From positions 19,055 through 83,054 of IMG/VR virus record IMGVR_UViG_3300043403_000051: a stretch of 64,000 nucleotides of DNA; one strand, given 5' to 3'. Positions 1 through 19,119 of the stretch are shown here, one piece after another. The number at the start of each line of letters is the position of its first letter. The first letter of the stretch is position 1. The translations under genes and the position numbers were made by a program. Under the pieces are notes generated by a model. That model had not been told where the DNA came from and did not search any database. It was given only the letters and a program-made list of their open reading frames with translations. The stretch comes from a virus.

Positions 1-14
1 TTAACGGGGCATCT

Positions 15-87
15 GCTTTCTTAGCTCAACGGTGAGAGCAGGACGCTTATATCGTCAAGGTTACAGGTTCGAATCCTGTAGGAAGTA
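15..87 (+). tRNA. tRNA-Ile(UAU)
   Basis: Acceptor GCTTTCT/AGGAAGT, anticodon arm GACG-CTTATAT-CGTC, T arm ACAGG-TTCGAAT-CCTGT; no encoded CCA. Confidence 0.9.
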
Positions 88-92
88 CATAT

Positions 93-166
93 TGAGATGT
101 AGCTCAATTGGTGAGAGCATATGACTGATACTCATAAGGTTGAAGGTTCGACCCCTTTCATCTCAA
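93..166 (+). tRNA. tRNA-Ile(GAU)
   Basis: Acceptor TGAGATG/CATCTCA, anticodon arm TATGA-CTGATAC-TCATA, GGTTCGAC T loop. Confidence 0.92.
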
Positions 167-171
167 CACAC

Positions 172-245
172 GGGGCAATAGTTTAAGCGGCTTAAAACAA
201 TTGATTTGCAATCAGTAGTTCCGATTTCGAGTATCGGTGGCTCCA
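172..245 (+). tRNA. tRNA-Ala(UGC)
   Basis: Anticodon arm ATTGA-TTTGCAA-TCAGT; G3:U70 alanine identity pair in GGGGCAA/TGGCTCC. Confidence 0.9.
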
Positions 246-259
246 CACAAAGAACAACA

Positions 260-739
260 ATGGACAAATATTTTAAAACTGAGACTGGTAAAATAGTTGA
301 TATAATAGAATACACGGCCCAACAAATAAAAGACAATCCCTCTGTTAAGATATACATAGGTGCTGATAGCCAAGTCTACGGCCCTAAGATTAAGTTTATC
401 TTAGCTATTGTATATAGGGTTGGTAATAGGGGTGGGCACTGTATTCATAAGCTTATAAAGACTGAAAGACCACCCAAAGGGATTCCTGATGAAATTCAGG
501 TTAATAACAGGCTTACAGAGGAAGTTTACTTAACTATGGAGCTTGCCCAATATTTTATTGATAATAGTTCTTTTAAACTGGAGGCAGTTGAATTTGACTT
601 TAATCAAGAGGAAAGTTACCTAAGTAACAAGCTAATAAACTTATCAACAGGTTGGGCTAAAGGACTTGGTTTTAAAGCACGTACTAAGCCTGATGAACTG
701 ATAGCTTGCAAGTATGCAGACCATCTCGTAAGATTTTAA
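260..739 (+). CDS. RNase H-like YkuK/DUF458 family protein
   Basis: IYIGADSQ motif, RLxEEV, C-terminal YADHL; start moved to ATG 260 because the longer ORF overlaps tRNA-Ala. Confidence 0.75.
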   Translation: MDKYFKTETGKIVDIIEYTAQQIKDNPSVKIYIGADSQVYGPKIKFILAIVYRVGNRGGHCIHKLIKTERPPKGIPDEIQVNNRLTEEVYLTMELAQYFIDNSSFKLEAVEFDFNQEESYLSNKLINLSTGWAKGLGFKARTKPDELIACKYADHLVRF

Positions 740-741
740 TT

Positions 742-1338
742 ATGATTGTAATATATAAAATAGAAAATCCAAAAGGTAAAGTTTATATTGGTCAAACCAA
801 AAGACTTATTCAAAGAAAGTCTGCTTACAAAAATTTAAGATGTAAGAAACAAAGAAAACTTTATAGTTCTTTAAATAAATATGGTTGGGAAAATCATACA
901 CTTTGTGTTTTACATGAGTTACCTGATGATATAGAGCAAAGAGTAGTAGATGATTATGAAATTTTTTACTATGAACAATTTATTGCTTGTGGATTTGAAA
1001 TGCTAAACCTAAAAACATGCGGAAACGGCGGAGGATTACACTCGGAGGAAACAAAGAGATTGATAGGAAAACAAAGTAAGGAAAGATTTAAAGCTAAATC
1101 TGGAATGAAAATAGCTCAGGTAAATCTTAATTTGGAAATTATTAATTTTTGGGAGAACGGTTATACACTACAACAAGAAAGAAAGTATTACAATATATCA
1201 AGAAAATGCAGAGAATTTCCAAGTATAGCTTATGGATATTTTTGGTTATACGAAAAAGATTTACATAAATTAACGCAAATAGACAAGCTTAAAATAAAAA
1301 AAGACGGGAATGGTGTTTATAGTTATTTCAAAATGTAA
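742..1338 (+). CDS. Free-standing GIY-YIG homing endonuclease with NUMOD3-like motif
   Basis: N-terminal VIYKI...KVYIGQT, conserved R, E and N residues, HSEETKRLIG motif; likely start ATG 742. Confidence 0.85.
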   Translation: MIVIYKIENPKGKVYIGQTKRLIQRKSAYKNLRCKKQRKLYSSLNKYGWENHTLCVLHELPDDIEQRVVDDYEIFYYEQFIACGFEMLNLKTCGNGGGLHSEETKRLIGKQSKERFKAKSGMKIAQVNLNLEIINFWENGYTLQQERKYYNISRKCREFPSIAYGYFWLYEKDLHKLTQIDKLKIKKDGNGVYSYFKM

Positions 1339-1377
1339 TAATCTCTGTAGAGTTTAGTAATTCATTAACATTATTTA

Positions 1378-1409
1378 TTTGGTAGATTAAAAAAAGATTT
1401 ATACCTTTG
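1378..1409 (+). promoter_or_regulatory. Bacteroidota-type promoter of tRNA operon A
   Basis: TTTG (1378-1381), 20 nt spacer, TACCTTTG (1402-1409) matches the -33/-7 consensus. Confidence 0.85.
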
Positions 1410-1415
1410 TATCCC

Positions 1416-1493
1416 ATGAAGAATTTCAACACATATTATAGTCTCTCATTGTTATCCAGCCTAACGGGTCGGGAGCTAAAGGTATGGGTATAA
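1416..1493 (+). CDS. Attenuator leader peptide A, MKNFNTYYSLSLLSSLTGRELKVWV (25 aa)
   Basis: ATG 6 nt after the -7 box; ten consecutive Tyr/Ser/Leu codons at 1434-1463; contains GGGAGCT complementary to the terminator 5' arm. Confidence 0.8.
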   Translation: MKNFNTYYSLSLLSSLTGRELKVWV

Positions 1494-1522
1494 TAAAGAT
1501 AAACTCTTAAATCAAAACATAT

Positions 1523-1550
1523 AAAAAAGCTCCCTATTGGGGGCTTTTTT
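1523..1550 (+). terminator. Attenuator terminator A
   Basis: AAAAAAGCTCCC-TATT-GGGGGCTTTTTT hairpin plus U tract, 7 nt before the first tRNA. Confidence 0.9.
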
Positions 1551-1557
1551 AGTTTAT

Positions 1558-1630
1558 GGCTCTATGACGTAATTGGAAACCGTCTTGGCTTTAGAACCCA
1601 AGTTTCCGAGTTCGAGTCTCGGTAGAGCTA
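1558..1630 (+). tRNA. tRNA-Leu(UAG), short variable loop
   Basis: Acceptor GGCTCTA/TAGAGCT, A73, loop TTTAGAA, T arm CCGAG-TTCGAGT-CTCGG; C31-C39 mismatch. Confidence 0.8.
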
Positions 1631-1633
1631 CAT

Positions 1634-1706
1634 GCCTTTGTGATGAAACGGAATACATGTCAGACTTAAAATCTGAATTTTACGGGTTCGACTCCCGTCA
1701 GAGGTA
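1634..1706 (+). tRNA. tRNA-Leu(UAA), short variable loop
   Basis: TCAGA-CTTAAAA-TCTGA; acceptor GCCTTTG/CAGAGGT; A73. Confidence 0.88.
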
Positions 1707-1711
1707 CATTT

Positions 1712-1796
1712 GGAAGCACGTAAAGTTGGCGTACTTATCCGTCTTGAAAACGGTGAAGAGGTAACACTTGTGCAGGTTCGACCCCTGCTGTTTCCG
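1712..1796 (+). tRNA. tRNA-Ser(UGA)
   Basis: CCGT-CTTGAAA-ACGG, long variable arm, G73. Confidence 0.88.
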
Positions 1797-1799
1797 CAT

Positions 1800-1883
1800 A
1801 GAGAGGTGACTGAATGGTAAGGTACTGGTTTGCTAAACCAGGGTCAGATAAAACTGGAGTGGGTTCGATACCCATCCTCTCTG
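1800..1883 (+). tRNA. tRNA-Ser(GCU)
   Basis: CTGGT-TTGCTAA-ACCAG, long variable arm, acceptor AGAGAGG/CCTCTCT, G73. Confidence 0.92.
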
Positions 1884-1885
1884 CT

Positions 1886-1940
1886 AAAGGGTTCCTGTAT
1901 CAGGCAAAATATAACCCCCGTTGTGGTATAGGAATCGTTT
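1886..1940 (+). ncRNA. Small non-tRNA hairpin RNA inside tRNA operon A
   Basis: GGTTCCTGTATCA (1890-1902) pairs with TGGTATAGGAATC (1924-1936) over 13 bp including G-U pairs. Confidence 0.45.
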
Positions 1941-1944
1941 ATTT

Positions 1945-2029
1945 GAGATAGCTGTCGTGATGGAGGAACGGCACTGGTCTGTAAAACCAGCACTATGAAA
2001 CACAGTAGGTTCGAATCCCACCTATCTCA
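1945..2029 (+). tRNA. tRNA-Tyr(GUA)
   Basis: CTGGT-CTGTAAA-ACCAG, extended variable region, acceptor GAGATAG/CTATCTC. Confidence 0.9.
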
Positions 2030-2055
2030 CATTAACAATTAATTTTAATTATTTA

Positions 2056-2087
2056 TTTGGTAGTTAGATAAAAAGATACTACCTTTG
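2056..2087 (+). promoter_or_regulatory. Bacteroidota-type promoter of tRNA operon B
   Basis: TTTG (2056-2059), 20 nt, TACCTTTG (2080-2087); near copy of the promoter at 1378. Confidence 0.85.
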
Positions 2088-2091
2088 CTTT

Positions 2092-2172
2092 ATGAATGTA
2101 ACACGTACACATACGCAACAGTTTTGGTTCCCTACAAGGGCTGGGCTTGGTATGTGTGATAATAGAGGATAA
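2092..2172 (+). CDS. Attenuator leader peptide B, MNVTRTHTQQFWFPTRAGLGMCDNRG (26 aa)
   Basis: ATG 4 nt after the -7 box; twelve consecutive Thr/Arg/His/Gln/Phe/Trp/Pro codons at 2101-2136; contains CTGGGCTT complementary to the terminator 5' arm. Confidence 0.8.
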   Translation: MNVTRTHTQQFWFPTRAGLGMCDNRG

Positions 2173-2196
2173 ATTCCCCCAAACACTCACTCATTG

Positions 2197-2234
2197 AAAA
2201 GCCCAGGACATAAAATCCTGGGTTTTTTATTTTT
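2197..2234 (+). terminator. Attenuator terminator B
   Basis: AAAAGCCCAGGA-CATAAAA-TCCTGGGTTTTTT directly before tRNA-Pro. Confidence 0.9.
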
Positions 2235-2237
2235 AAT

Positions 2238-2311
2238 CGGGATGTGGACTAATGGCAAGTCACTTACTTTGGGAGTAAGGCATCATGGAGGTTCGAGTCC
2301 TCTCATCCCGA
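2238..2311 (+). tRNA. tRNA-Pro(UGG)
   Basis: CTTAC-TTTGGGA-GTAAG; acceptor CGGGATG/CATCCCG. Confidence 0.92.
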
Positions 2312-2316
2312 CATTT

Positions 2317-2388
2317 GCCTCGTAAGCATATATGGTGATGCAGCGCACTTGTAATGCGCAGAATAGGTTTCGAGTACCTAACTTGGCT
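2317..2388 (+). tRNA. tRNA-Thr(UGU)
   Basis: GCGCA-CTTGTAA-TGCGC; two acceptor-stem mismatches. Confidence 0.88.
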
Positions 2389-2395
2389 CAGTAAT

Positions 2396-2467
2396 GGAGA
2401 TATAGCTCAGTTGGAAGAGCAACGGATTGAAGCCCCGTGAGCACCAGTTCGACTCTGGTTATCTCCA
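2396..2467 (+). tRNA. tRNA-Phe(GAA)
   Basis: Loop TTGAAGC; acceptor GGAGATA/TATCTCC; canonical D arm. Confidence 0.9.
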
Positions 2468-2474
2468 CATATAT

Positions 2475-2545
2475 TCCCATTTGGCGTAACGGAAGCGTAG
2501 GACTCTTTGAAAGTCTTGGAAATTGTTCGATTCAATTAATGGGAG
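2475..2545 (+). tRNA. tRNA-Gln(UUG)
   Basis: GGACT-CTTTGAA-AGTCT; acceptor TCCCATT/AATGGGA (U1-A72), G73. Confidence 0.9.
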
Positions 2546-2550
2546 CACAC

Positions 2551-2622
2551 GGGTTTATTGATGTAATGGAAGCATGGCAGTTTGTGAAGCTGCTCGTATG
2601 GGTTCGAACCCCATATCTACCC
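2551..2622 (+). tRNA. tRNA-His(GUG)
   Basis: GCAGT-TTGTGAA-GCTGC; G-1:C73 present; two acceptor mismatches. Confidence 0.88.
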
Positions 2623-2627
2623 CTTTT

Positions 2628-2699
2628 ATCCTCTTAGCATAATGGAAGTGCAGCAAGCTACGAACTTGCGTTGTGTGAGTTCGAGTCTCATGGAGGATT
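2628..2699 (+). tRNA. tRNA-Arg(ACG)
   Basis: GCAAG-CTACGAA-CTTGC; acceptor ATCCTCT/GGAGGAT. Confidence 0.9.
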
Positions 2700-2711
2700 C
2701 TTTTTATAACT

Positions 2712-2781
2712 GCGTATGCCTAAAGGAGTAGTAAGCGGTCTCCAAAACCGTGATTTATCAGTTCGAGTCTGGTCATGCGTG
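2712..2781 (+). tRNA. tRNA-Trp(CCA) with reduced D arm
   Basis: GCGGT-CTCCAAA-ACCGT; T arm ATCAG-TTCGAGT-CTGGT; acceptor GCGTATG/CATGCGT; only about 70 nt. Confidence 0.75.
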
Positions 2782-2793
2782 CTTAAATAGTAT

Positions 2794-2842
2794 ACCCAAG
2801 TTAATTATTTGTTAAAAGTAATTGATTTGGGTTATTTTTTTT
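2794..2842 (+). terminator. Terminator closing the tRNA region
   Basis: ACCCAAGTTAATTATTT...AAGTAATTGATTTGGGT hairpin followed by a T run. Confidence 0.7.
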
Positions 2843-2871
2843 GGTAGTGTCATAAATTCTTGTTATTTTTG
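2840..2871 (+). promoter_or_regulatory. Bacteroidota-type promoter for the packaging/head operon
   Basis: TTTG, 20 nt, TATTTTTG. Confidence 0.65.
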
Positions 2872-2886
2872 TATAAATTAATTACT

Positions 2887-3240
2887 GTGAGCAACCAAAT
2901 ACCTTTTATAAAGATTTCAAAGAACACAGACTCTAAAATAGAGATGGTTAAAAAGATTGTTTCTATCTATTGTGTGTTGTCTGATATTAAACTTTCTGAA
3001 ACTGATATTATAGTTGTTTCATATTTCATTCTATATGGAATCAATGAAAAAACTAAAAAATTAATTATTGATAGCAAACTCCTTAATAGTGATAGTATCA
3101 AAAATACAATGTCAAAATTAAGAAAAGCAGGTATAATTAAAAAATCAGAATTCAGGAGAAAAGAAGATTATCTAAATGAAAACTTAAACATACCAATTAA
3201 TAAAGTTGTTGGATTAATGATTAAAATAGATAACTCCTAA
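2887..3240 (+). CDS. Hypothetical protein, possible winged-helix DNA-binding protein
   Basis: Basic ORF with SIKNTMSKLRKAGIIKK; GTG start chosen downstream of the promoter. Confidence 0.5.
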   Translation: MSNQIPFIKISKNTDSKIEMVKKIVSIYCVLSDIKLSETDIIVVSYFILYGINEKTKKLIIDSKLLNSDSIKNTMSKLRKAGIIKKSEFRRKEDYLNENLNIPINKVVGLMIKIDNS

Positions 3241-3560
3241 TGAAAAATATAGATTATGTAACCAAGAAAGTAGCAAAAGAACTACAACTTAATGAAGACA
3301 TTGTATCGAAAATTTATTATGATTTTTATTGGAAGAATGTAGTATTTCCAAAAATAAAATCTTTTGAGTATACGGCAATAACATTACCAAAGCTTGGTAC
3401 ATTATATCTATCATACTATAAACTAAGAAAAGAAATAACAGACATAATATTTAGACTTAGACGAGTTAGAGATAATGACACACTTACAGATGGAAAAAGA
3501 AAACAATTAGATGACCATTATGTAAATTATCTTAGAAAATTATTATTACGTAGAAACTAA
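3240..3560 (+). CDS. HU/IHF-like DNA-binding protein
   Basis: VAKELQL...ITLPKLGTL pattern resembles the HU fold. Confidence 0.5.
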   Translation: MKNIDYVTKKVAKELQLNEDIVSKIYYDFYWKNVVFPKIKSFEYTAITLPKLGTLYLSYYKLRKEITDIIFRLRRVRDNDTLTDGKRKQLDDHYVNYLRKLLLRRN

Positions 3561-3582
3561 TTACTTTTAAAAAAATAATAAA

Positions 3583-3930
3583 ATGTTAAATGCATTAAAA
3601 GAATATGTAAAACTTTTACCCACAGCTATTGAAAATATTGATAGTGTAGCAGAGGGATTATGGAATAAGTTAAATCATGATTCTTTAACAGACCCACAAA
3701 AAGAAGAAATCGTAAAAAGAAAACTAATTTGTTTAGAATGCCCGTATAATAGTAAGAATGCAAGTGATTTATTTAACTACATATCTTATAGAACAGACGA
3801 CCATTGTATACATTGTAGCTGTAATATTGACTTAAAAACAGAATGTTTGTCTTGTAATTGTGGAATAGAAGTTTATAATCAAAACAATCCAACAAAAAAA
3901 TTATCTCTTAACTGGGAAGCCTACAAATAA
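3583..3930 (+). CDS. Cys-rich putative Zn-binding phage protein
   Basis: CLEC, CIHCSC and CLSCNC motifs. Confidence 0.55.
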   Translation: MLNALKEYVKLLPTAIENIDSVAEGLWNKLNHDSLTDPQKEEIVKRKLICLECPYNSKNASDLFNYISYRTDDHCIHCSCNIDLKTECLSCNCGIEVYNQNNPTKKLSLNWEAYK

Positions 3931-6536: not shown

Positions 6537-9212
6537 ATGGCATTATATAACGCTGCTGATAATTTTAATTCTTTAGTTATGCCCCCACAAATGGTATCTC
6601 TTTCTGATAAGATGAAGGATGATAGATTGTGGGGTAAAAAATGTATGGATACTCTTGAACAAGTTGCTTATACACAAATTCAAGGAAACTACAAACTTGT
6701 TGAAAACTATGAGATGGTAAAAGGTCAGTTCATACCAACACATTATTTTGGAGATGAAGGTTACCAAAGTATGTTAACCCAACTATCTTCTGAATTAGAA
6801 CTACCAAATTATCTTAGACACTATGATATTATATCACCTGTATTAAATACATTATCTGGAGAATTTCAAAAAAGACCAGACTTATTTAGAATTAAGGCAT
6901 GGGATGAGAATAATAAAAATGAGTACTTAACTAAGAAAACAGAACTTATAAAAAACTTTATTTCATCTATCATAGAGAAGCAAGTAAACGATAAATTAAT
7001 TGAGCAAGGTATTGATACCAATCAACAATTTCAGAGCCAAGAAGAGGCTGACAAGTACGAAGAATTCAAGAATACCATACGTACTGCACTCACTCCTCCT
7101 GAAATTGAGGAGTATATGACAACTGAGTTTAGAACAGCCGCAGAAATTTGGGCAGAGTGTGTATTAGATATGGATAAGGAAAGATTTTCCTTAGATGAAA
7201 AAGAGAAAGTGGAGTTCGAAGACATGATTATTTCAGATAGATGTTTTCGACATTTTTATATTACAGGTAAAGGTTACGAACAAGAAACATGGAATCCTGT
7301 AAATGTATTCTACCACAAATCTGATGAAACCATATACATCGAAGATGGTGATTATGTGGGTCGTCAATTCTATGGAACTCCCTCGGATATCATTGATAGA
7401 TATGGATTTAGAATGAAAAAGTCTCAAATTGAGATGCTTGAAAAATTTAAAGAAAACAACGATAGACGTTGGAATGAGACACCTGGCTCAGGGTATGTTT
7501 ACCAAAACTACATGTTCCCTTTTAAAGGCTATCAGGGGTGGGATATTGTAAACAAAGGAATGGGGGCAACTGACCCATCATCACCATATGGTATCCCAAA
7601 AATACCTGATAACTTCTTTGATAGCTTTGGTTCAAATATGTATTCAGAGAAACTCGGTATGTTTCTTATTACAGAGGGATATTGGATGTCACAAAAAAAA
7701 ATAGGCTTATACACATACTTTGATGAAGAACTTGGGATAGTAACAAGCACTTTAGTGGATGAAAATGTTATTCTCCCTGATGATATTATAGTTATAGATG
7801 AAATTGAAGAAGGTAGTGAGGAAGAAAATATTAATACAATTGCTTGGACATATGTAAATGAAGTTTGGCAAGGTGTTAAAATAAATGTAAGAAACGCTGA
7901 TGTGACAGATGAGCATAATACGGACGCAATCTATTTAGACTTACAACCGTTGTCTTTTCAATTTAAAGGTGATATAAATCCCTATAATGCTAAACTACCC
8001 GTGTGTGGACAAATATTTAGTGTAAGGAATTCTAAATCTGCATCTCTTGTTGATTTAATGAAACCTTACCAGATTGGTTTTAATGTAGCAATGAATCAAG
8101 TCTATCAAATGATGGAGAAAGAAATTGGTGCATTTATGGTAATGGATGTGAATATGTTTCCTGATAGTAAAGATTGGGGTGGAGAAGATGCTTGGGAGAA
8201 ATGGATGCTTATTGCCAAAAACTTAGGTATGCTTCCCGCAGATACATCACCCGCAAATACAAAAGGGGCAAGTGCCGCAGCAGGTGGTCAATTTCCAAAA
8301 ATTCTTAATCTTGACTTAGCTGCTCAATTTACATCAAGAATAAATTTAGCACAAATCTTTAAAAAGTTTGCTTTAGAGCAAATAGGATTTAACGATTATC
8401 GTCTTGGTAATTTTAATCAAAGTTCTACAGCTACGGGTATTGAAGAAGGGCAACAACGTTCTTTTGCACAAACAGAGAGTTACTTTACAAATTTTTATAA
8501 TTATTTAAAAAGATGTAAAAGAATGAATTTAGATATTGCACAGTTTGTTCAAGCTAAAGATGCTGATATAACTTTTAATTATGTTAAATCAGATTTATCT
8601 ACGGCATATATAAAAATAGCAGGAACCGATTTAATGGGTTCTGACCTACATGTATTTGTTACAAACTCTCAAGAGCATCTAAGACAATTAGAGGCAAGCA
8701 GACAACTTGGTTTACAGAACACAACACAAATGACAGAAGACAACCTTCTTGAACTTATTACATCAAACTCTTTATCATCTATTAAAAAGAAAATTAAAGA
8801 TGGTGTTAAGAAAAGACAAGAGAAAGAGCAACAAGCTTTAGATATGCAGCAACAACAAACAGAAGCAATGAAGGAAGTTGAGACAATGAAACAACAAAAA
8901 GAAGATGAACGTCTTGAAAAGAAACTTGCTTCAGCAGAGTATATTGCACAAATTCAACTTGAAGCTGCAAATGGTGGGGATATCCCTGATTCCATAAATA
9001 TGCAAAATCAGTTAAAGAACCAAGAAATGACAAATAGACAATCTTCTGAATCAACTAAAAATCAGATTGCTAATCAACAACGTATTGATAATAGGCAACT
9101 CAAAGAAAAAGAACTTGCTTTAAAAAATAAGAAAATTGACACAGATTTAGAGATTCAAAATAAAGAACTTGAAAGTGTAAAAATATTAAAAGATAAGACA
9201 GATAAAAAATAA
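6537..9212 (+). CDS. Portal protein (crAss-like)
   Basis: 891 aa after terL; HYDIISP..L.GE and SLVDLMKPYQ..FN motifs; coiled-coil C terminus. Confidence 0.85.
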   Translation: MALYNAADNFNSLVMPPQMVSLSDKMKDDRLWGKKCMDTLEQVAYTQIQGNYKLVENYEMVKGQFIPTHYFGDEGYQSMLTQLSSELELPNYLRHYDIISPVLNTLSGEFQKRPDLFRIKAWDENNKNEYLTKKTELIKNFISSIIEKQVNDKLIEQGIDTNQQFQSQEEADKYEEFKNTIRTALTPPEIEEYMTTEFRTAAEIWAECVLDMDKERFSLDEKEKVEFEDMIISDRCFRHFYITGKGYEQETWNPVNVFYHKSDETIYIEDGDYVGRQFYGTPSDIIDRYGFRMKKSQIEMLEKFKENNDRRWNETPGSGYVYQNYMFPFKGYQGWDIVNKGMGATDPSSPYGIPKIPDNFFDSFGSNMYSEKLGMFLITEGYWMSQKKIGLYTYFDEELGIVTSTLVDENVILPDDIIVIDEIEEGSEEENINTIAWTYVNEVWQGVKINVRNADVTDEHNTDAIYLDLQPLSFQFKGDINPYNAKLPVCGQIFSVRNSKSASLVDLMKPYQIGFNVAMNQVYQMMEKEIGAFMVMDVNMFPDSKDWGGEDAWEKWMLIAKNLGMLPADTSPANTKGASAAAGGQFPKILNLDLAAQFTSRINLAQIFKKFALEQIGFNDYRLGNFNQSSTATGIEEGQQRSFAQTESYFTNFYNYLKRCKRMNLDIAQFVQAKDADITFNYVKSDLSTAYIKIAGTDLMGSDLHVFVTNSQEHLRQLEASRQLGLQNTTQMTEDNLLELITSNSLSSIKKKIKDGVKKRQEKEQQALDMQQQQTEAMKEVETMKQQKEDERLEKKLASAEYIAQIQLEAANGGDIPDSINMQNQLKNQEMTNRQSSESTKNQIANQQRIDNRQLKEKELALKNKKIDTDLEIQNKELESVKILKDKTDKK

Positions 9213-9287: not shown

Positions 9288-10496
9288 ATGGATTTTCAAT
9301 CACAAATTGCAACAATCTCACAAGAACAACTCGACAGTCTATTTAACGATACTCCAGAAACAACAGTAACGGTAAATAACTTAGAGGCAACAACTAATCC
9401 TAATGTCCGTGATGAGGATAAAAAGGAAGTATCACCAAGAATAAATATGTCAGACAGAATTGATTTTGTTGACACCGATACAATAGATGTTGATGAGGAG
9501 GAAGAAAAAGAAGAAAAAATAGAGACTCCTATTATAGAGGAGGAGCCAAAACCCAAAAAAGATAAAAAACCAAAACCCGAAGAAGAGGAAATTCCTCCTG
9601 TAACTTCTGATGATGCTAAAGCCATTCTTAAAAATACAGTAGACTTTTTAATTCAATCTGGTAATTGGTCTGATTTTGAAGGACGAGAAGATATGGAGTT
9701 TGATGATGACTCCTTTGGAAAATTAGCACTTGCCCAAGACCAATCAAGAGTTCAAAGTATGTTTAGTGAGCTTCTTGATGAAACAGGTGAATACGGTAAA
9801 GCTATTATATCACATATTAAAAATGGTGGAAATCCAGATGAAGTAATTGATATTTTCAAAGAACAAAAACAACTTGCCACAATAGACACTAATACTTTTG
9901 AAGGACGTGTTGAAAAAATAGAGGCATATTACACTGATGTAATAGGTTGGAAACCAGAAAAGATTAAAAGATATCTTGAAAGAATATCCCAAGACCAAGA
10001 TGAATTCGATACAGAATTTACAGAGGTTGAGGAAAAATATAATGAGTATTATCAGGAAAAGCTTGATGAGATTAATGAAAGAACAAATACTCAGAAAAAA
10101 GAACAAGAGCAAAAAAAACAACAATTTGTTTCTAATATAAAAAATGTTTTAGAAGCAAGAACAGATTTAACTAAAAAAGACCAAGGTCTAATAGAATCTG
10201 CTCTATTTAACTATAAATATAAACTACCTAATGGTCAGCAAGTAAACGAATTTTTTGTAAAATTTGCAGAACTTCAAAAAGACCCACAAGCTTACGTAGA
10301 CTTAGTACTTTACGTAATGGATAAAAAAAGAGTAGTTGAAAAACAAAACCAAACTATTGCAAAAAAAGAATCTATAAAACAATTCAATTTTGTAAAAGGA
10401 AACACCGCAGTTAAGAAAAAAACTACAGGTGGGATAGTTAAAGAGATAGATGATTCTAAGATAAATCGGACAGATTTTTCATCGCTATTTAAATAA
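9288..10496 (+). CDS. Acidic scaffold-like head assembly protein
   Basis: Acidic low-complexity N terminus and coiled coil, between portal and capsid. Confidence 0.6.
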   Translation: MDFQSQIATISQEQLDSLFNDTPETTVTVNNLEATTNPNVRDEDKKEVSPRINMSDRIDFVDTDTIDVDEEEEKEEKIETPIIEEEPKPKKDKKPKPEEEEIPPVTSDDAKAILKNTVDFLIQSGNWSDFEGREDMEFDDDSFGKLALAQDQSRVQSMFSELLDETGEYGKAIISHIKNGGNPDEVIDIFKEQKQLATIDTNTFEGRVEKIEAYYTDVIGWKPEKIKRYLERISQDQDEFDTEFTEVEEKYNEYYQEKLDEINERTNTQKKEQEQKKQQFVSNIKNVLEARTDLTKKDQGLIESALFNYKYKLPNGQQVNEFFVKFAELQKDPQAYVDLVLYVMDKKRVVEKQNQTIAKKESIKQFNFVKGNTAVKKKTTGGIVKEIDDSKINRTDFSSLFK

Positions 10497-17218: not shown

Positions 17219-19119
17219 TGTCAACTACAAACTGTGGATGTCCTGAAACTCCATGTACTGCTACTATTGACCCTTGCACAAACAAAGGTTGTCCAATTCC
17301 GCCAACTGATGCGGAATGTATATATTTTAATTTATTTTCAGATAGTGGATTACCATGTATAGGTGTTACAGGTGGGACAAATTTAAAAACTATTTTAGAG
17401 AAAATAGATGTAAAATTATGTAGTATAAATCCATATGATTTTAGTGCTTATGATTTAAAATGTTTAGATGATACTACTACAATATTAACATTTAAAAATT
17501 TTGCAGAAGCTGTTGCAACACAATTGTGTCAGGCTAAAACAAATATTGCAACTTTAACAAATACATTATCCGCTCTATCAACAACAGTTGACGTAAATAA
17601 TGTTCCTGTTATTGCAGATAATTGTTCTATAGGGATATTACCAAATGACACAGTAAAACAAGTTCTACAAAAACTTGTAAATAAAATTTGTACGTTAACT
17701 CCAACAGATGTCAGTCCATCAATAGGTGTATCAAGTACGAATAGTATTTCATTTTTAGCGTCAGGTACAAAAAATCATAATATATCAGCAAATGTTAGAG
17801 TATCTCCAAATATTGGTAATACTTTACAAACATTAGTAAATGGATTATATGTTGCCACACCTGCGTCAGTAGCTGCACAAACATTAAGTTATAATACACT
17901 ATCAAGAGAATTAGCTATATCGGGTGGTAATTCGATAACACTTCCACCAGACTTAGATAATCAAACACTTTCGTTAAATTTATTAACAAATATATTAACT
18001 ATAAGCGGTGGTAACTCTGTTGATTTTACTCCATTATTTTCTGCAATTTCTATAACAGAAACTGATATAACAGCAAACGATAGTCAAACAATTAATTTTA
18101 CTACATCGGGAACAGCAGACCATACCTTAACAGGAAGTGTAATTGTTGACAATACTCAACCCAACGCTCTTATTGCAAATAGTAATGGTTTATATGTAGC
18201 CCCCGTTTCAGTTCCACTGCAAACAGGACAAAATGGTATTACAACAAATCTTGGATTAATTGAACTTGGCGGAAGCCTTATAAAAGATACGGTATTATCA
18301 GAAGTTACAGGAACTCATGAATTTGCGCTTGAGGCAAAAAATATTTGGTTTGGTAATGATTATCTTACATATCTAAATAATTTTGATATTACTCAATTTG
18401 GGGTTGTGTCAACAAAAAATGTTACAGATTTTTTAACATATAGTAATATGTTAAGCTCATTTGACTTAACTATAGACGGTGGATTTTCAACAGGTAAGGT
18501 ATTTACAGCAAGTAATAATGGATTAGTTTTAAATTTAGATAGTTCATCAACTGTTCCCAACTCTACAGTTGTTGGTGCAAATGTCAGTACAGTTAATCTT
18601 AAAACAAATAACGAAAATTTAACATTTTCTCAAGCTACAGATTTAGTTGGTACATCAGTAAGAGCTTTATATACATCAAGATTATCTTTTCAAATTTTAG
18701 AGGAAACAACAACATCTTCTACAATCAGTCATGCAGCAACCCTTGCTATTGGCTCTCCTTATTATGTACCTGGTGGTGTAGATTTTGCTACAATAACAAA
18801 TTACTATGGAATTTTATTAAATAGGTCTAATTCTTTTAATTTAAGTCTTATTACTAATAGATGGGGTATTTATCAAGAAGGAGAAAGTGATAATAACTAT
18901 TTTGCAGGATTTACAAGTTTTGGAAATACAACTACGCCAACCTCTCAAATAGATATTGCTACAACAAATGGTTATCAAGCCCTTCGTTTAAGAAATGATT
19001 ATACTCCAAGCGCAACAGGTGATACTAACGGAGAAATTGGTAATATTACATGGGATGATAGCTTTATTTATATAAAGACATCCGTTGGTTGGAAAAAAGC
19101 AACATTAGCAGCAATATAA
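17218..19119 (+). CDS. Tail fibre protein
   Basis: Cys-rich N terminus, repeated QTLS...L.ISGGNS, C-terminal GEIGNITWDDSFIYIKT..WKK. Confidence 0.75.
   Translation: MSTTNCGCPETPCTATIDPCTNKGCPIPPTDAECIYFNLFSDSGLPCIGVTGGTNLKTILEKIDVKLCSINPYDFSAYDLKCLDDTTTILTFKNFAEAVATQLCQAKTNIATLTNTLSALSTTVDVNNVPVIADNCSIGILPNDTVKQVLQKLVNKICTLTPTDVSPSIGVSSTNSISFLASGTKNHNISANVRVSPNIGNTLQTLVNGLYVATPASVAAQTLSYNTLSRELAISGGNSITLPPDLDNQTLSLNLLTNILTISGGNSVDFTPLFSAISITETDITANDSQTINFTTSGTADHTLTGSVIVDNTQPNALIANSNGLYVAPVSVPLQTGQNGITTNLGLIELGGSLIKDTVLSEVTGTHEFALEAKNIWFGNDYLTYLNNFDITQFGVVSTKNVTDFLTYSNMLSSFDLTIDGGFSTGKVFTASNNGLVLNLDSSSTVPNSTVVGANVSTVNLKTNNENLTFSQATDLVGTSVRALYTSRLSFQILEETTTSSTISHAATLAIGSPYYVPGGVDFATITNYYGILLNRSNSFNLSLITNRWGIYQEGESDNNYFAGFTSFGNTTTPTSQIDIATTNGYQALRLRNDYTPSATGDTNGEIGNITWDDSFIYIKTSVGWKKATLAAI

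Follow-up and report, generated by a model that had tools for sequence, protein, structure and literature searches.

The stretch of DNA considered here, called the window below, comprises 64,000 nucleotides (nt) and extends to the right-hand end of a virus record of IMG/VR (IMGVR_UViG_3300043403_000051) that is 83,054 bp long and 57% complete according to CheckV. Genes for transfer RNAs (tRNAs) crowd the left end of the window, and the genome contains three tRNA cassettes each headed by a short leader open reading frame (ORF), namely cassette 0 just left of the window and cassettes A and B within it. This article deals primarily with cassette A, in which a promoter-like module, a leader ORF with a block of Tyr, Ser and Leu codons, an intrinsic terminator and five genes for Leu, Ser and Tyr tRNAs follow one another on the plus strand. 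Judged from its sequence and from its relatives in other phages, cassette A is probably a multivalent leader-peptide transcription attenuator placed before a tRNA operon.

Promoter-like module, leader ORF and tRNA genes of cassette A

The promoter-like module of cassette A, ATTTGGTAG-N16-TACCTTTG, is located at 1377-1409 of the plus strand and ends 6 nt upstream of the leader ATG, so that the leader mRNA would, from the predicted start, be leaderless or nearly so. A search of the 83-kb genome with the pattern of this module gave four matches on the plus strand, none on the minus strand and none in a reversed control, and each of the three leader ORFs has one of these four copies in front of it (that of cassette B is located at 2055-2087 of the window). 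The modules appear to resemble the Bacteroidota -33/-7 consensus, TTTG...TAnnTTTG.

Leader ORF A, MKNFNTYYSLSLLSSLTGRELKVWV, extends from 1416 to 1493 on the plus strand, consists of 25 codons and a stop codon (TAA, 1491-1493) and lies, as is expected of an attenuator, between the predicted promoter and the first structural gene. Its codons 7-16 (1434-1463) constitute the sensor block, which is made up of ten codons in a row for Tyr, Ser or Leu, with nine distinct codons and two from each codon box (TAT, TAT, AGT, CTC, TCA, TTG, TTA, TCC, AGC and CTA); these codons are present, and in frame with the ATG at 1416, just as was proposed when the sequence was first inspected. Leu, Ser and Tyr together account for 0.20 of the residues in the 46 long ORFs of the phage, and a run of ten such codons was reached in 0 of 200,000 random windows of the same length taken from these ORFs. 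In addition, the run beginning at 1434 is the longest Leu/Ser/Tyr run in the six frames of the 83 kb, the runner-up having a length of 8. The leader of cassette A thus has a cluster of codons cognate to the products of the operon, which is another property of attenuators.

The tRNA genes of the cassette, all on the plus strand, are those for tRNA-Leu(UAG) (1558-1631, 47.1 bits in Rfam) and tRNA-Leu(UAA) (1634-1707, 58.3 bits), both 74 nt long with a short variable loop, tRNA-Ser(UGA) (1712-1797, 86 nt, long arm, atypical), tRNA-Ser(GCU) (1800-1884, 85 nt, long arm, 51.2 bits) and tRNA-Tyr(GUA) (1945-2030, 86 nt, long arm, atypical, 23.8 bits and below the 29-bit cut-off). All five tRNAs claimed in the original prediction are recovered, four of them by ARAGORN at default settings and the fifth, tRNA-Ser(UGA), by ARAGORN only at a relaxed threshold (-ps80); Rfam scores this last gene at 33 bits as tRNA-Sec, below the cut-off. 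The operon had also been described as a grouping of the three class II tRNA families. This is correct for the amino-acid families and for the long arms (85-86 nt genes) of the two Ser tRNAs and the Tyr tRNA, and incorrect for both Leu tRNAs, which have variable loops of 4-5 nt without the long arm usual for bacterial tRNA-Leu. A spacer of 60 nt without calls (1885-1944) separates the tRNA-Ser(GCU) and tRNA-Tyr genes, the other tRNA genes of cassette A being 2-4 nt apart.

Leader composition in the cassettes of three phages

Among the 50,697 phage records searched by blastn, the Leptolyngbya phage Lbo-JY46 is the sole real relative (47% query coverage, 77.8% identity), and its recorded host is the cyanobacterium Leptolyngbya boryana; tblastn against the phage records gave Lbo-JY46 and five distant records at 29-31% identity. 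From metagenome contigs, a third locus, L006, was recovered by alignment of the neighbouring DUF458/RNase H-like protein (57% identity). In other assemblies there are 13 protein relatives, and scanning of viral contigs with two single proteins, one protein alignment and three DNA patterns gave no additional relatives. A promoter module of the same kind is found in Lbo-JY46 (L001, 3025-3056); Bacteroidota-like promoters set against the cyanobacterial host recorded for the closest cultured relative make either the host call or the promoter reading doubtful.

The layout of leader, terminator and tRNA genes is found in all nine cassettes of the three phages, with three cassettes per phage. Cassette B (2055-2229, plus strand) consists of the promoter module mentioned above, a leader ORF at 2092-2172 (MNVTRTHTQQFWFPTRAGLGMCDNRG) and a terminator at 2195-2229, and is followed at 2238-2782 by the genes for Pro, Thr, Phe, Gln, His, Arg(ACG) and Trp tRNAs. 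Leader 0 (MNSRTVIDNIRNAEGCKKALVGNVCFYDGGCGCN; positions 17565-17669 of genome C1, left of the window) belongs to the genes for Lys, Cys, Val, Arg(UCU), Asn, Met, Gly, Glu, Asp, Ile, Ile and Ala tRNAs. The three sets of the window phage jointly span all 20 amino acids, Arg being split by isoacceptor. Leader B has a run of 13 codons for its own tRNA set, which is the longest such run in six frames (runner-up, 9). Furthermore, when each leader is compared with each tRNA set, the runs on the diagonal of the matrix are 14, 10 and 13 in the window phage, with at most 7 off the diagonal, and 17, 7 and 11 and 13, 11 and 15 in the other two phages, with at most 4 off the diagonal. The leaders of cassette 0 in the window phage and in Lbo-JY46 run about 15 codons past the sensor block, and these codons are again mostly from their own tRNA set. 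On the minus strand left of the window, at a great distance from the three cassettes, genome C1 has a second, lone tRNA-Arg(UCU) gene (10254-10328).

Leader A of Lbo-JY46, MKNFNTYYSLSLSLSQPTQELYLCAY, is homologous to leader A of the window, which is kept there as MKNFNTYYSLSLSLSQ..., and leaders B of these two phages differ by an in-frame 3-nt indel, a replacement of Thr by Gln within the set and synonymous changes. In L006 the homologous leader A has been re-ordered and re-written (MHIRSLYYSSLSLLSTTSTGIVLH, the peptide being given as MHIRSLYYSSLSLLST): its composition and position are kept and its peptide is not. Behind leader A of Lbo-JY46 there are genes for Leu, Leu and Ser-tga only; the next gene encodes a protein and has a promoter of its own. 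An extra 86-nt tRNA gene of this phage at 2501-2587 is annotated as Leu. In L006, the tRNA-Leu genes are 87 nt (Leu-UAA) and 75 nt (Leu-UAG) long, the segment at 6853-6929 aligns, at 32.3 bits, as a tRNA-Ile(GAU) whose D region is reduced and which has a long insert, and the segment at 6766-6848 is called as Lys-ctt by relaxed ARAGORN only, without an Rfam hit.

Cysteine, which makes up 0.9% of the residues, deserves separate description. In the window phage and in Lbo-JY46 the Cys tRNA belongs to cassette 0, and leader 0 contains Cys codons. In L006, where the tRNA identities were checked, the Cys tRNA is grouped with those for Pro, Thr, Phe, Trp, Gln, His and Arg(ACG), and the leader of this Pro/Thr cassette, MKRFTHTWFTFCPQCPTGG..., has two Cys codons in its block, and the leader of the cassette without a Cys tRNA has none. 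This re-sorting, visible on both sides, is the strongest evidence that leader composition follows tRNA content.

Alternative hairpins and the position of the ribosome

The minimum free energy (MFE) of 1416-1552 is -33.0 kcal/mol (z = -3.05), and one of 200 shuffled sequences folds equally well. The MFE structure contains two of the pairings that had been predicted, that is, the 1:2 pairing (1439-1454/1462-1478) between region 1 (1439-1454), the protector 5' arm inside the sensor block, and region 2 (1462-1478), and the 3:4 pairing (1522-1534/1539-1551). The latter is an intrinsic terminator at 1522-1551 with a 13-bp stem, the loop TATT, a T-run at 1546-1551 and -17.5 kcal/mol; a terminator scan gave the stem 1531-1543 with the T-run, and the terminator ends 7 nt before the first tRNA gene, so that it lies between the leader ORF and the structural genes as an attenuator requires. 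The core of region 2, GGGAGCT (1471-1477), pairs with region 1 or with region 3, AGCTCCC (1528-1534), which is at once the core of the terminator 5' arm and the antiterminator 3' arm. This third predicted pairing, 2:3, forms once region 4 is withheld; it consists of seven perfect pairs, has -16.1 kcal/mol alone, and its duplex energy was reached by 0 of 1000 leader shuffles. An antiterminator that uses the 5' arm of the terminator is thus present.

The same features were found in the sister cassettes with other sequences. In Lbo-JY46 regions 2 and 3 are changed on both sides (CAGGAG/CTCCTG as compared with GGGAG/CTCCC in the window), and regions 1, 2 and 3 of cassette A in L006 are TTCCAGT, ACTGGAA and TTCCAGT, respectively, in the same layout. 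In each of the nine cassettes, the distance from the end of the block to the start of region 2 is between -2 and +10 nt. In the 2:3 duplex test seven of nine cassettes were at 19 or fewer of 1000 shuffles; in two phages cassette 0 did not pass (355 and 387 of 1000), the 8-nt core used there having missed the folded pairing partner. Searches with the models of Rfam 15 reached the gathering threshold of no leader family, Phe_leader giving 25 bits against a cut-off of 55 and covering the terminator stretch only and the others giving nothing at E<=1, and no T-box covariance match was found in window 1-3600 at E<=1.

The dependence of the 2:3 pairing on the ribosome was calculated for a transcript ended at 1538, that is, with region 4 withheld, from its seven pairs under six ribosome-footprint models. 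The mean probability of this pairing, P(2:3), is 0.99 for stalls at 1434-1455 (sensor codons 1-8), 0.54-0.99 for the stall at 1458, 0-0.84 for the stall at 1461 and 0 for stalls at 1467-1488. In this model competence is full at the first eight of the ten sensor codons and borderline at the final two, block and competence ending together; in silico, the antiterminator is freed by a ribosome stalled on the regulatory codons and masked by one farther along. The original prediction held that a ribosome at the last sensor codon would cover to about 1470 and leave the antiterminator free. The freedom of the antiterminator is retained in borderline form by the values for 1461, and the footprint limit has to be corrected, since the standard footprint reaches about 1473-1474, 3-4 nt farther, and overlaps part of region 2. 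In eight of the eight cassettes folded, the end of the matching block falls within a few codons of the occlusion boundary. On these calculations the cleanest, textbook-like switch is the Leu/Ser/Tyr cassette of L006, where P(antiterminator) rises from 0.06 in the ribosome-free RNA to 0.9 when the stall is at block codons 5-14 and falls to about 0.1 beyond them.

Strain variation was observed in this very part of the cassette. A variant contig (X2) spans 1300-2900, and a shorter one (X4) covers 1441-2063 at the DNA level. The former has 19 substitutions relative to the window, of which none is in 1416-1470, 15 are in 1471-1526 and none is in leader B or its terminator, so the 56 nt of 1471-1526, from the sensor block to the terminator core, are the hot spot of strain variation in the 1.6-kb contig. 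Its substitution G1471A is accompanied by a T insertion after 1534; as six of the seven 2:3 pairs are kept and an A-U pair may be added across a bulge, the two together are not a clean compensatory change. Several of the variant substitutions, e.g., G1471A, match the state of Lbo-JY46, and recombination between alleles is a possible source of the variation at 1471-1526.

Proposed attenuation of tRNA genes, other explanations and known systems

The anatomy and alternative pairings of the leader, its codon statistics, and its conservation and re-sorting in the relatives, all of which are observed, support the original prediction of a leader-peptide attenuator with sensor codons for the amino acids of the downstream tRNAs. 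Also in its favour are the agreement of Arg codons with the isoacceptor of the cassette and the rarity of the sensor codons, both described below, and the lack of differences at 1416-1470 in the X2 contig. The general principle of leader-peptide attenuation is treated in PMC1183508. In cassette A, transcription would begin a few bases before the 25-codon ORF. When charged Tyr, Ser and Leu tRNAs are plentiful, the ribosome would pass codon 17 and cover GGGAGCT of region 2, whereupon the terminator at 1522-1551 would form and RNA polymerase would halt before the tRNA genes. When any of the sensed tRNAs is scarce, the ribosome would stall in the block and cover region 1, region 2 would be free to pair with AGCTCCC (1528-1534) before the 3' arm of the terminator is made, and the polymerase would read through, the Leu, Ser and Tyr tRNAs being transcribed and processed. 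Because the product sensed is the product made, this would be a direct negative feedback. By means of three such cassettes covering all 20 amino acids the phage could obtain tRNAs on demand, and mismatch to host codon usage, loss of host tRNAs during infection and host anticodon nucleases are plausible triggers.

Several points weigh against this explanation. We infer where transcription starts, that the ORF is translated from a leaderless start, that ribosomes stall and that the foldings compete kinetically, and the comparison covers three phage lineages, two of which are close relatives. Equilibrium folding of the full-length RNA gives the terminator as the MFE structure under 25 of 26 ribosome masks, which, taken literally, is the result that the original prediction had named as refuting it, i.e., a terminator favoured whichever region is masked. 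This calculation was set aside as a test of a kinetic switch because an attenuator decides before region 4 exists; as the terminator nearly always wins at full-length equilibrium, the switch must be kinetic. Without a ribosome and with region 4 withheld, 2:3 (-16.1 kcal/mol, P 0.99) beats 1:2 (-11.4 kcal/mol), and most sister cassettes likewise prefer 2:3 over 1:2, so that the untranslated state is not clearly off. For a ribosome at the stop codon, P(2:3) is 0.62-0.63 with a -15 footprint and 0 with a -18 footprint. In cassette 0 the run length says little, because its tRNA set spans 59% of residues (run P = 0.0085; 13 six-frame runs equal or exceed it). Finally, leader A of Lbo-JY46 keeps TAT TAT and two AGT codons despite the lack of a matching tRNA gene, no tRNA-Tyr or tRNA-Ser(GCU) having been found among the 21 Rfam hits of the whole record, by ARAGORN in the tRNA region or in the annotation of the fetched regions.

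A more ambitious explanation is that phage tRNA operons are self-titrating supply circuits, with multivalent leaders that work at the level of isoacceptors and fire only on a tRNA shortfall, and that they answer codon mismatch, host tRNA decay and host anticodon-nuclease defences; this is put forward tentatively and we consider it rather doubtful. Isoacceptor resolution is included in it because the leaders sample the two Ser boxes, the two Leu boxes and Arg as split into AGR and CGN, and because codons that are rare and read by wobble, e.g., CTC and TCC, would appear to be the most sensitive probes in such circuits. Sensing specific for isoacceptors, as originally proposed, is inherent to codon-wise stalling and plausible in principle; the counts of Ser and Leu boxes lend it no statistical support, sampling of both Ser and both Leu boxes in all three phages being a chance expectation in more than half of the draws (by arithmetic from codon usage). 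Likewise, "exactly two codons per tRNA" is a correct count for cassette A (2:2:2:2:2), and as a rule it is neither beyond chance nor kept: P is 0.094 given the peptide and the codon usage of the phage and 0.012 solely under a uniform model, and the counts are 2:2:2:2:1 in Lbo-JY46 and 2:4:1:2:2 in the metagenome phage L006. Of the seven Arg codons in the blocks, six fit the tRNA-Arg encoded in the respective cassette (AGA where it is UCU, CGT or CGA where it is ACG), for which our own arithmetic gives P of about 0.04 for two independent lineages; the exception, an AGG at the non-competent edge of leader B, belongs with the contrary points above. The split of Arg codons between cassettes hints at isoacceptor resolution. 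Compared with synonymous codons drawn at random, the sensor codons are also rarer (P = 0.005 in cassette A of the window, 0.09 in Lbo-JY46 and 0.07 in L006), with the rare codons CTC and TCC common to leader A of all three phages, and the choice of rare synonyms and the nine different codons plausibly point in the same direction.

The same attenuator could, like the classical amino-acid attenuators, respond to amino-acid starvation (uncharged tRNA) or to a general slowing of translation, the tRNA genes being switched on under stress; this explanation is unlikely. It has in its favour that a stalled ribosome is blind to the difference between a missing and an uncharged tRNA. The induction of the Anabaena trn tRNA operon on impaired translation, though by way of promoter repeats, is a further point in its favour, as it shows that spare tRNAs induced by stress do exist (PMC8421152). 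On the other hand, a general stress sensor needs neither a match between each leader and its own tRNA set, as seen on the diagonal of the matrix, nor Cys codons that track the cassette of the Cys tRNA, and extra tRNA is no cure for amino-acid starvation.

Slightly more improbable is a leaky or factor-controlled terminator. The hairpin would then stop part of the transcription constitutively, serve for processing or be the target of a phage antitermination factor, and the small ORF in front of it would not be translated, its codon content being a by-product. The terminator is indeed very stable and wins at equilibrium, and a start with almost no 5' untranslated region is unusual. Such a terminator is opposed by the Leu/Ser/Tyr and Pro/Thr/Phe/Gln/His/Arg/Trp runs, which are the longest in six frames (0 of 200,000 windows), by the composition kept in the re-written leader of L006, by the in-frame indel, within-set replacement (Thr to Gln) and synonymous changes by which leaders B differ, and by the agreement of block end and antiterminator boundary in the eight cassettes folded. 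Least of all are the small ORFs expected to be micropeptides with functions of their own and a secondary tRNA match, for although leader 0 of the window phage and that of Lbo-JY46 (L007, reverse strand, 1839-1949) have the same Cys/Gly-rich tail, DGGCGCN, with three synonymous and no replacement differences over seven codons, these synonymous changes also keep the predicted hairpin and so are no proof of peptide selection, and of leader A in L006 not the peptide but only composition and position relative to the hairpins are conserved.

The genes next to cassette A are a DUF458/YkuK RNase H-like protein gene at window 251-738 (PF04308, E 9e-17) and a GIY-YIG-like ORF at window 742-1338, which gave 22.2 bits in Pfam, slightly under the cut-off of 22.6, and lies between the DUF458 gene and promoter A. 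The DUF458/YkuK protein gene sits within the tRNA region in all three phages, and a part of its product in tRNA processing or repair is conceivable. The GIY-YIG-like ORF is probably a mobile insertion; Lbo-JY46 has nothing at its place, and an annotated homing endonuclease is located elsewhere in the tRNA region of that phage (L001, 1235-2062).

If attenuation by the leader is the true mechanism of cassette A, the ribosome would directly measure the molecule that is being made. It would explain how large phages have near-complete tRNA sets without flooding the cell, and phage tRNAs would be induced by codon-specific decoding stress, including that from tRNA-cleaving host defences. In addition, such leaders would be compact, programmable and codon-specific sensors. 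The proposal is directly testable, as the close relative Lbo-JY46 has a named culture host on record.

Multivalent attenuators of enterobacteria include the ilvGMEDA leader (Ile/Val/Leu) and thrL (Thr/Ile), and other enterobacterial attenuators are trpL, hisL, leuL and pheL. Cassette A resembles them in the short ORF after the promoter, the cluster of codons for more than one amino acid, the 1:2, 2:3 and 3:4 hairpins and the intrinsic terminator, as well as in the selection of the antiterminator by a stalled ribosome, which is proposed here. However, they control biosynthetic enzymes, whereas cassette A would control tRNA genes, the sensed molecule being the product, and cassette A is further distinguished by being phage-borne, by its leaderless-like start and Bacteroidota-like promoter and by belonging to no Rfam leader family. 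The pheST attenuator of E. coli with its pheM leader acts on an aminoacyl-tRNA synthetase and responds to a single amino acid. It is similar to cassette A in that a component of translation is attenuated through a leader peptide by the supply of charged tRNA, but cassette A has tRNA genes as its target and senses three amino acids through five codon boxes. T-box riboswitches bind uncharged tRNA directly without a ribosome or an ORF; they share with cassette A a terminator/antiterminator switch that answers the state of specific tRNAs, and cassette A differs by its ORF and the ribosome.

Regulated tRNA genes themselves were also compared. A Phe-rich leader, considered for a tRNA-Phe gene of E. 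coli, is not present at pheV in MG1655: the gap of about 105 nt between yqgA and pheV has no more than a promoter-like sequence and two very short ORFs, neither of them with more than one Phe. The "tRNA operon" passage of PMC3082878 concerns proM and supercoiling. The trn array of Anabaena sp. PCC 7120 is a long tRNA array which is silent and is induced under translational stress (PMC8421152; PMC10272220). It is like the phage cassettes, as proposed here, in that supernumerary tRNA genes stay silent until translation becomes impaired, and it differs in its control at the promoter level by direct repeats and a repressor and in its location on a bacterial megaplasmid and not in a phage; "attenuat" and "leader" occur 0 times in PMC8421152. 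No published leader-peptide attenuation of tRNA genes was found in the literature searched, older subscription papers and supplements being outside its coverage. To our knowledge, leader-peptide attenuation, a textbook mechanism for fifty years, has always concerned genes for amino-acid biosynthesis, transport or synthetases. The mechanism proposed for cassette A is itself known from the classical multivalent attenuators, and what appears to be new is that tRNA genes are the regulated target.

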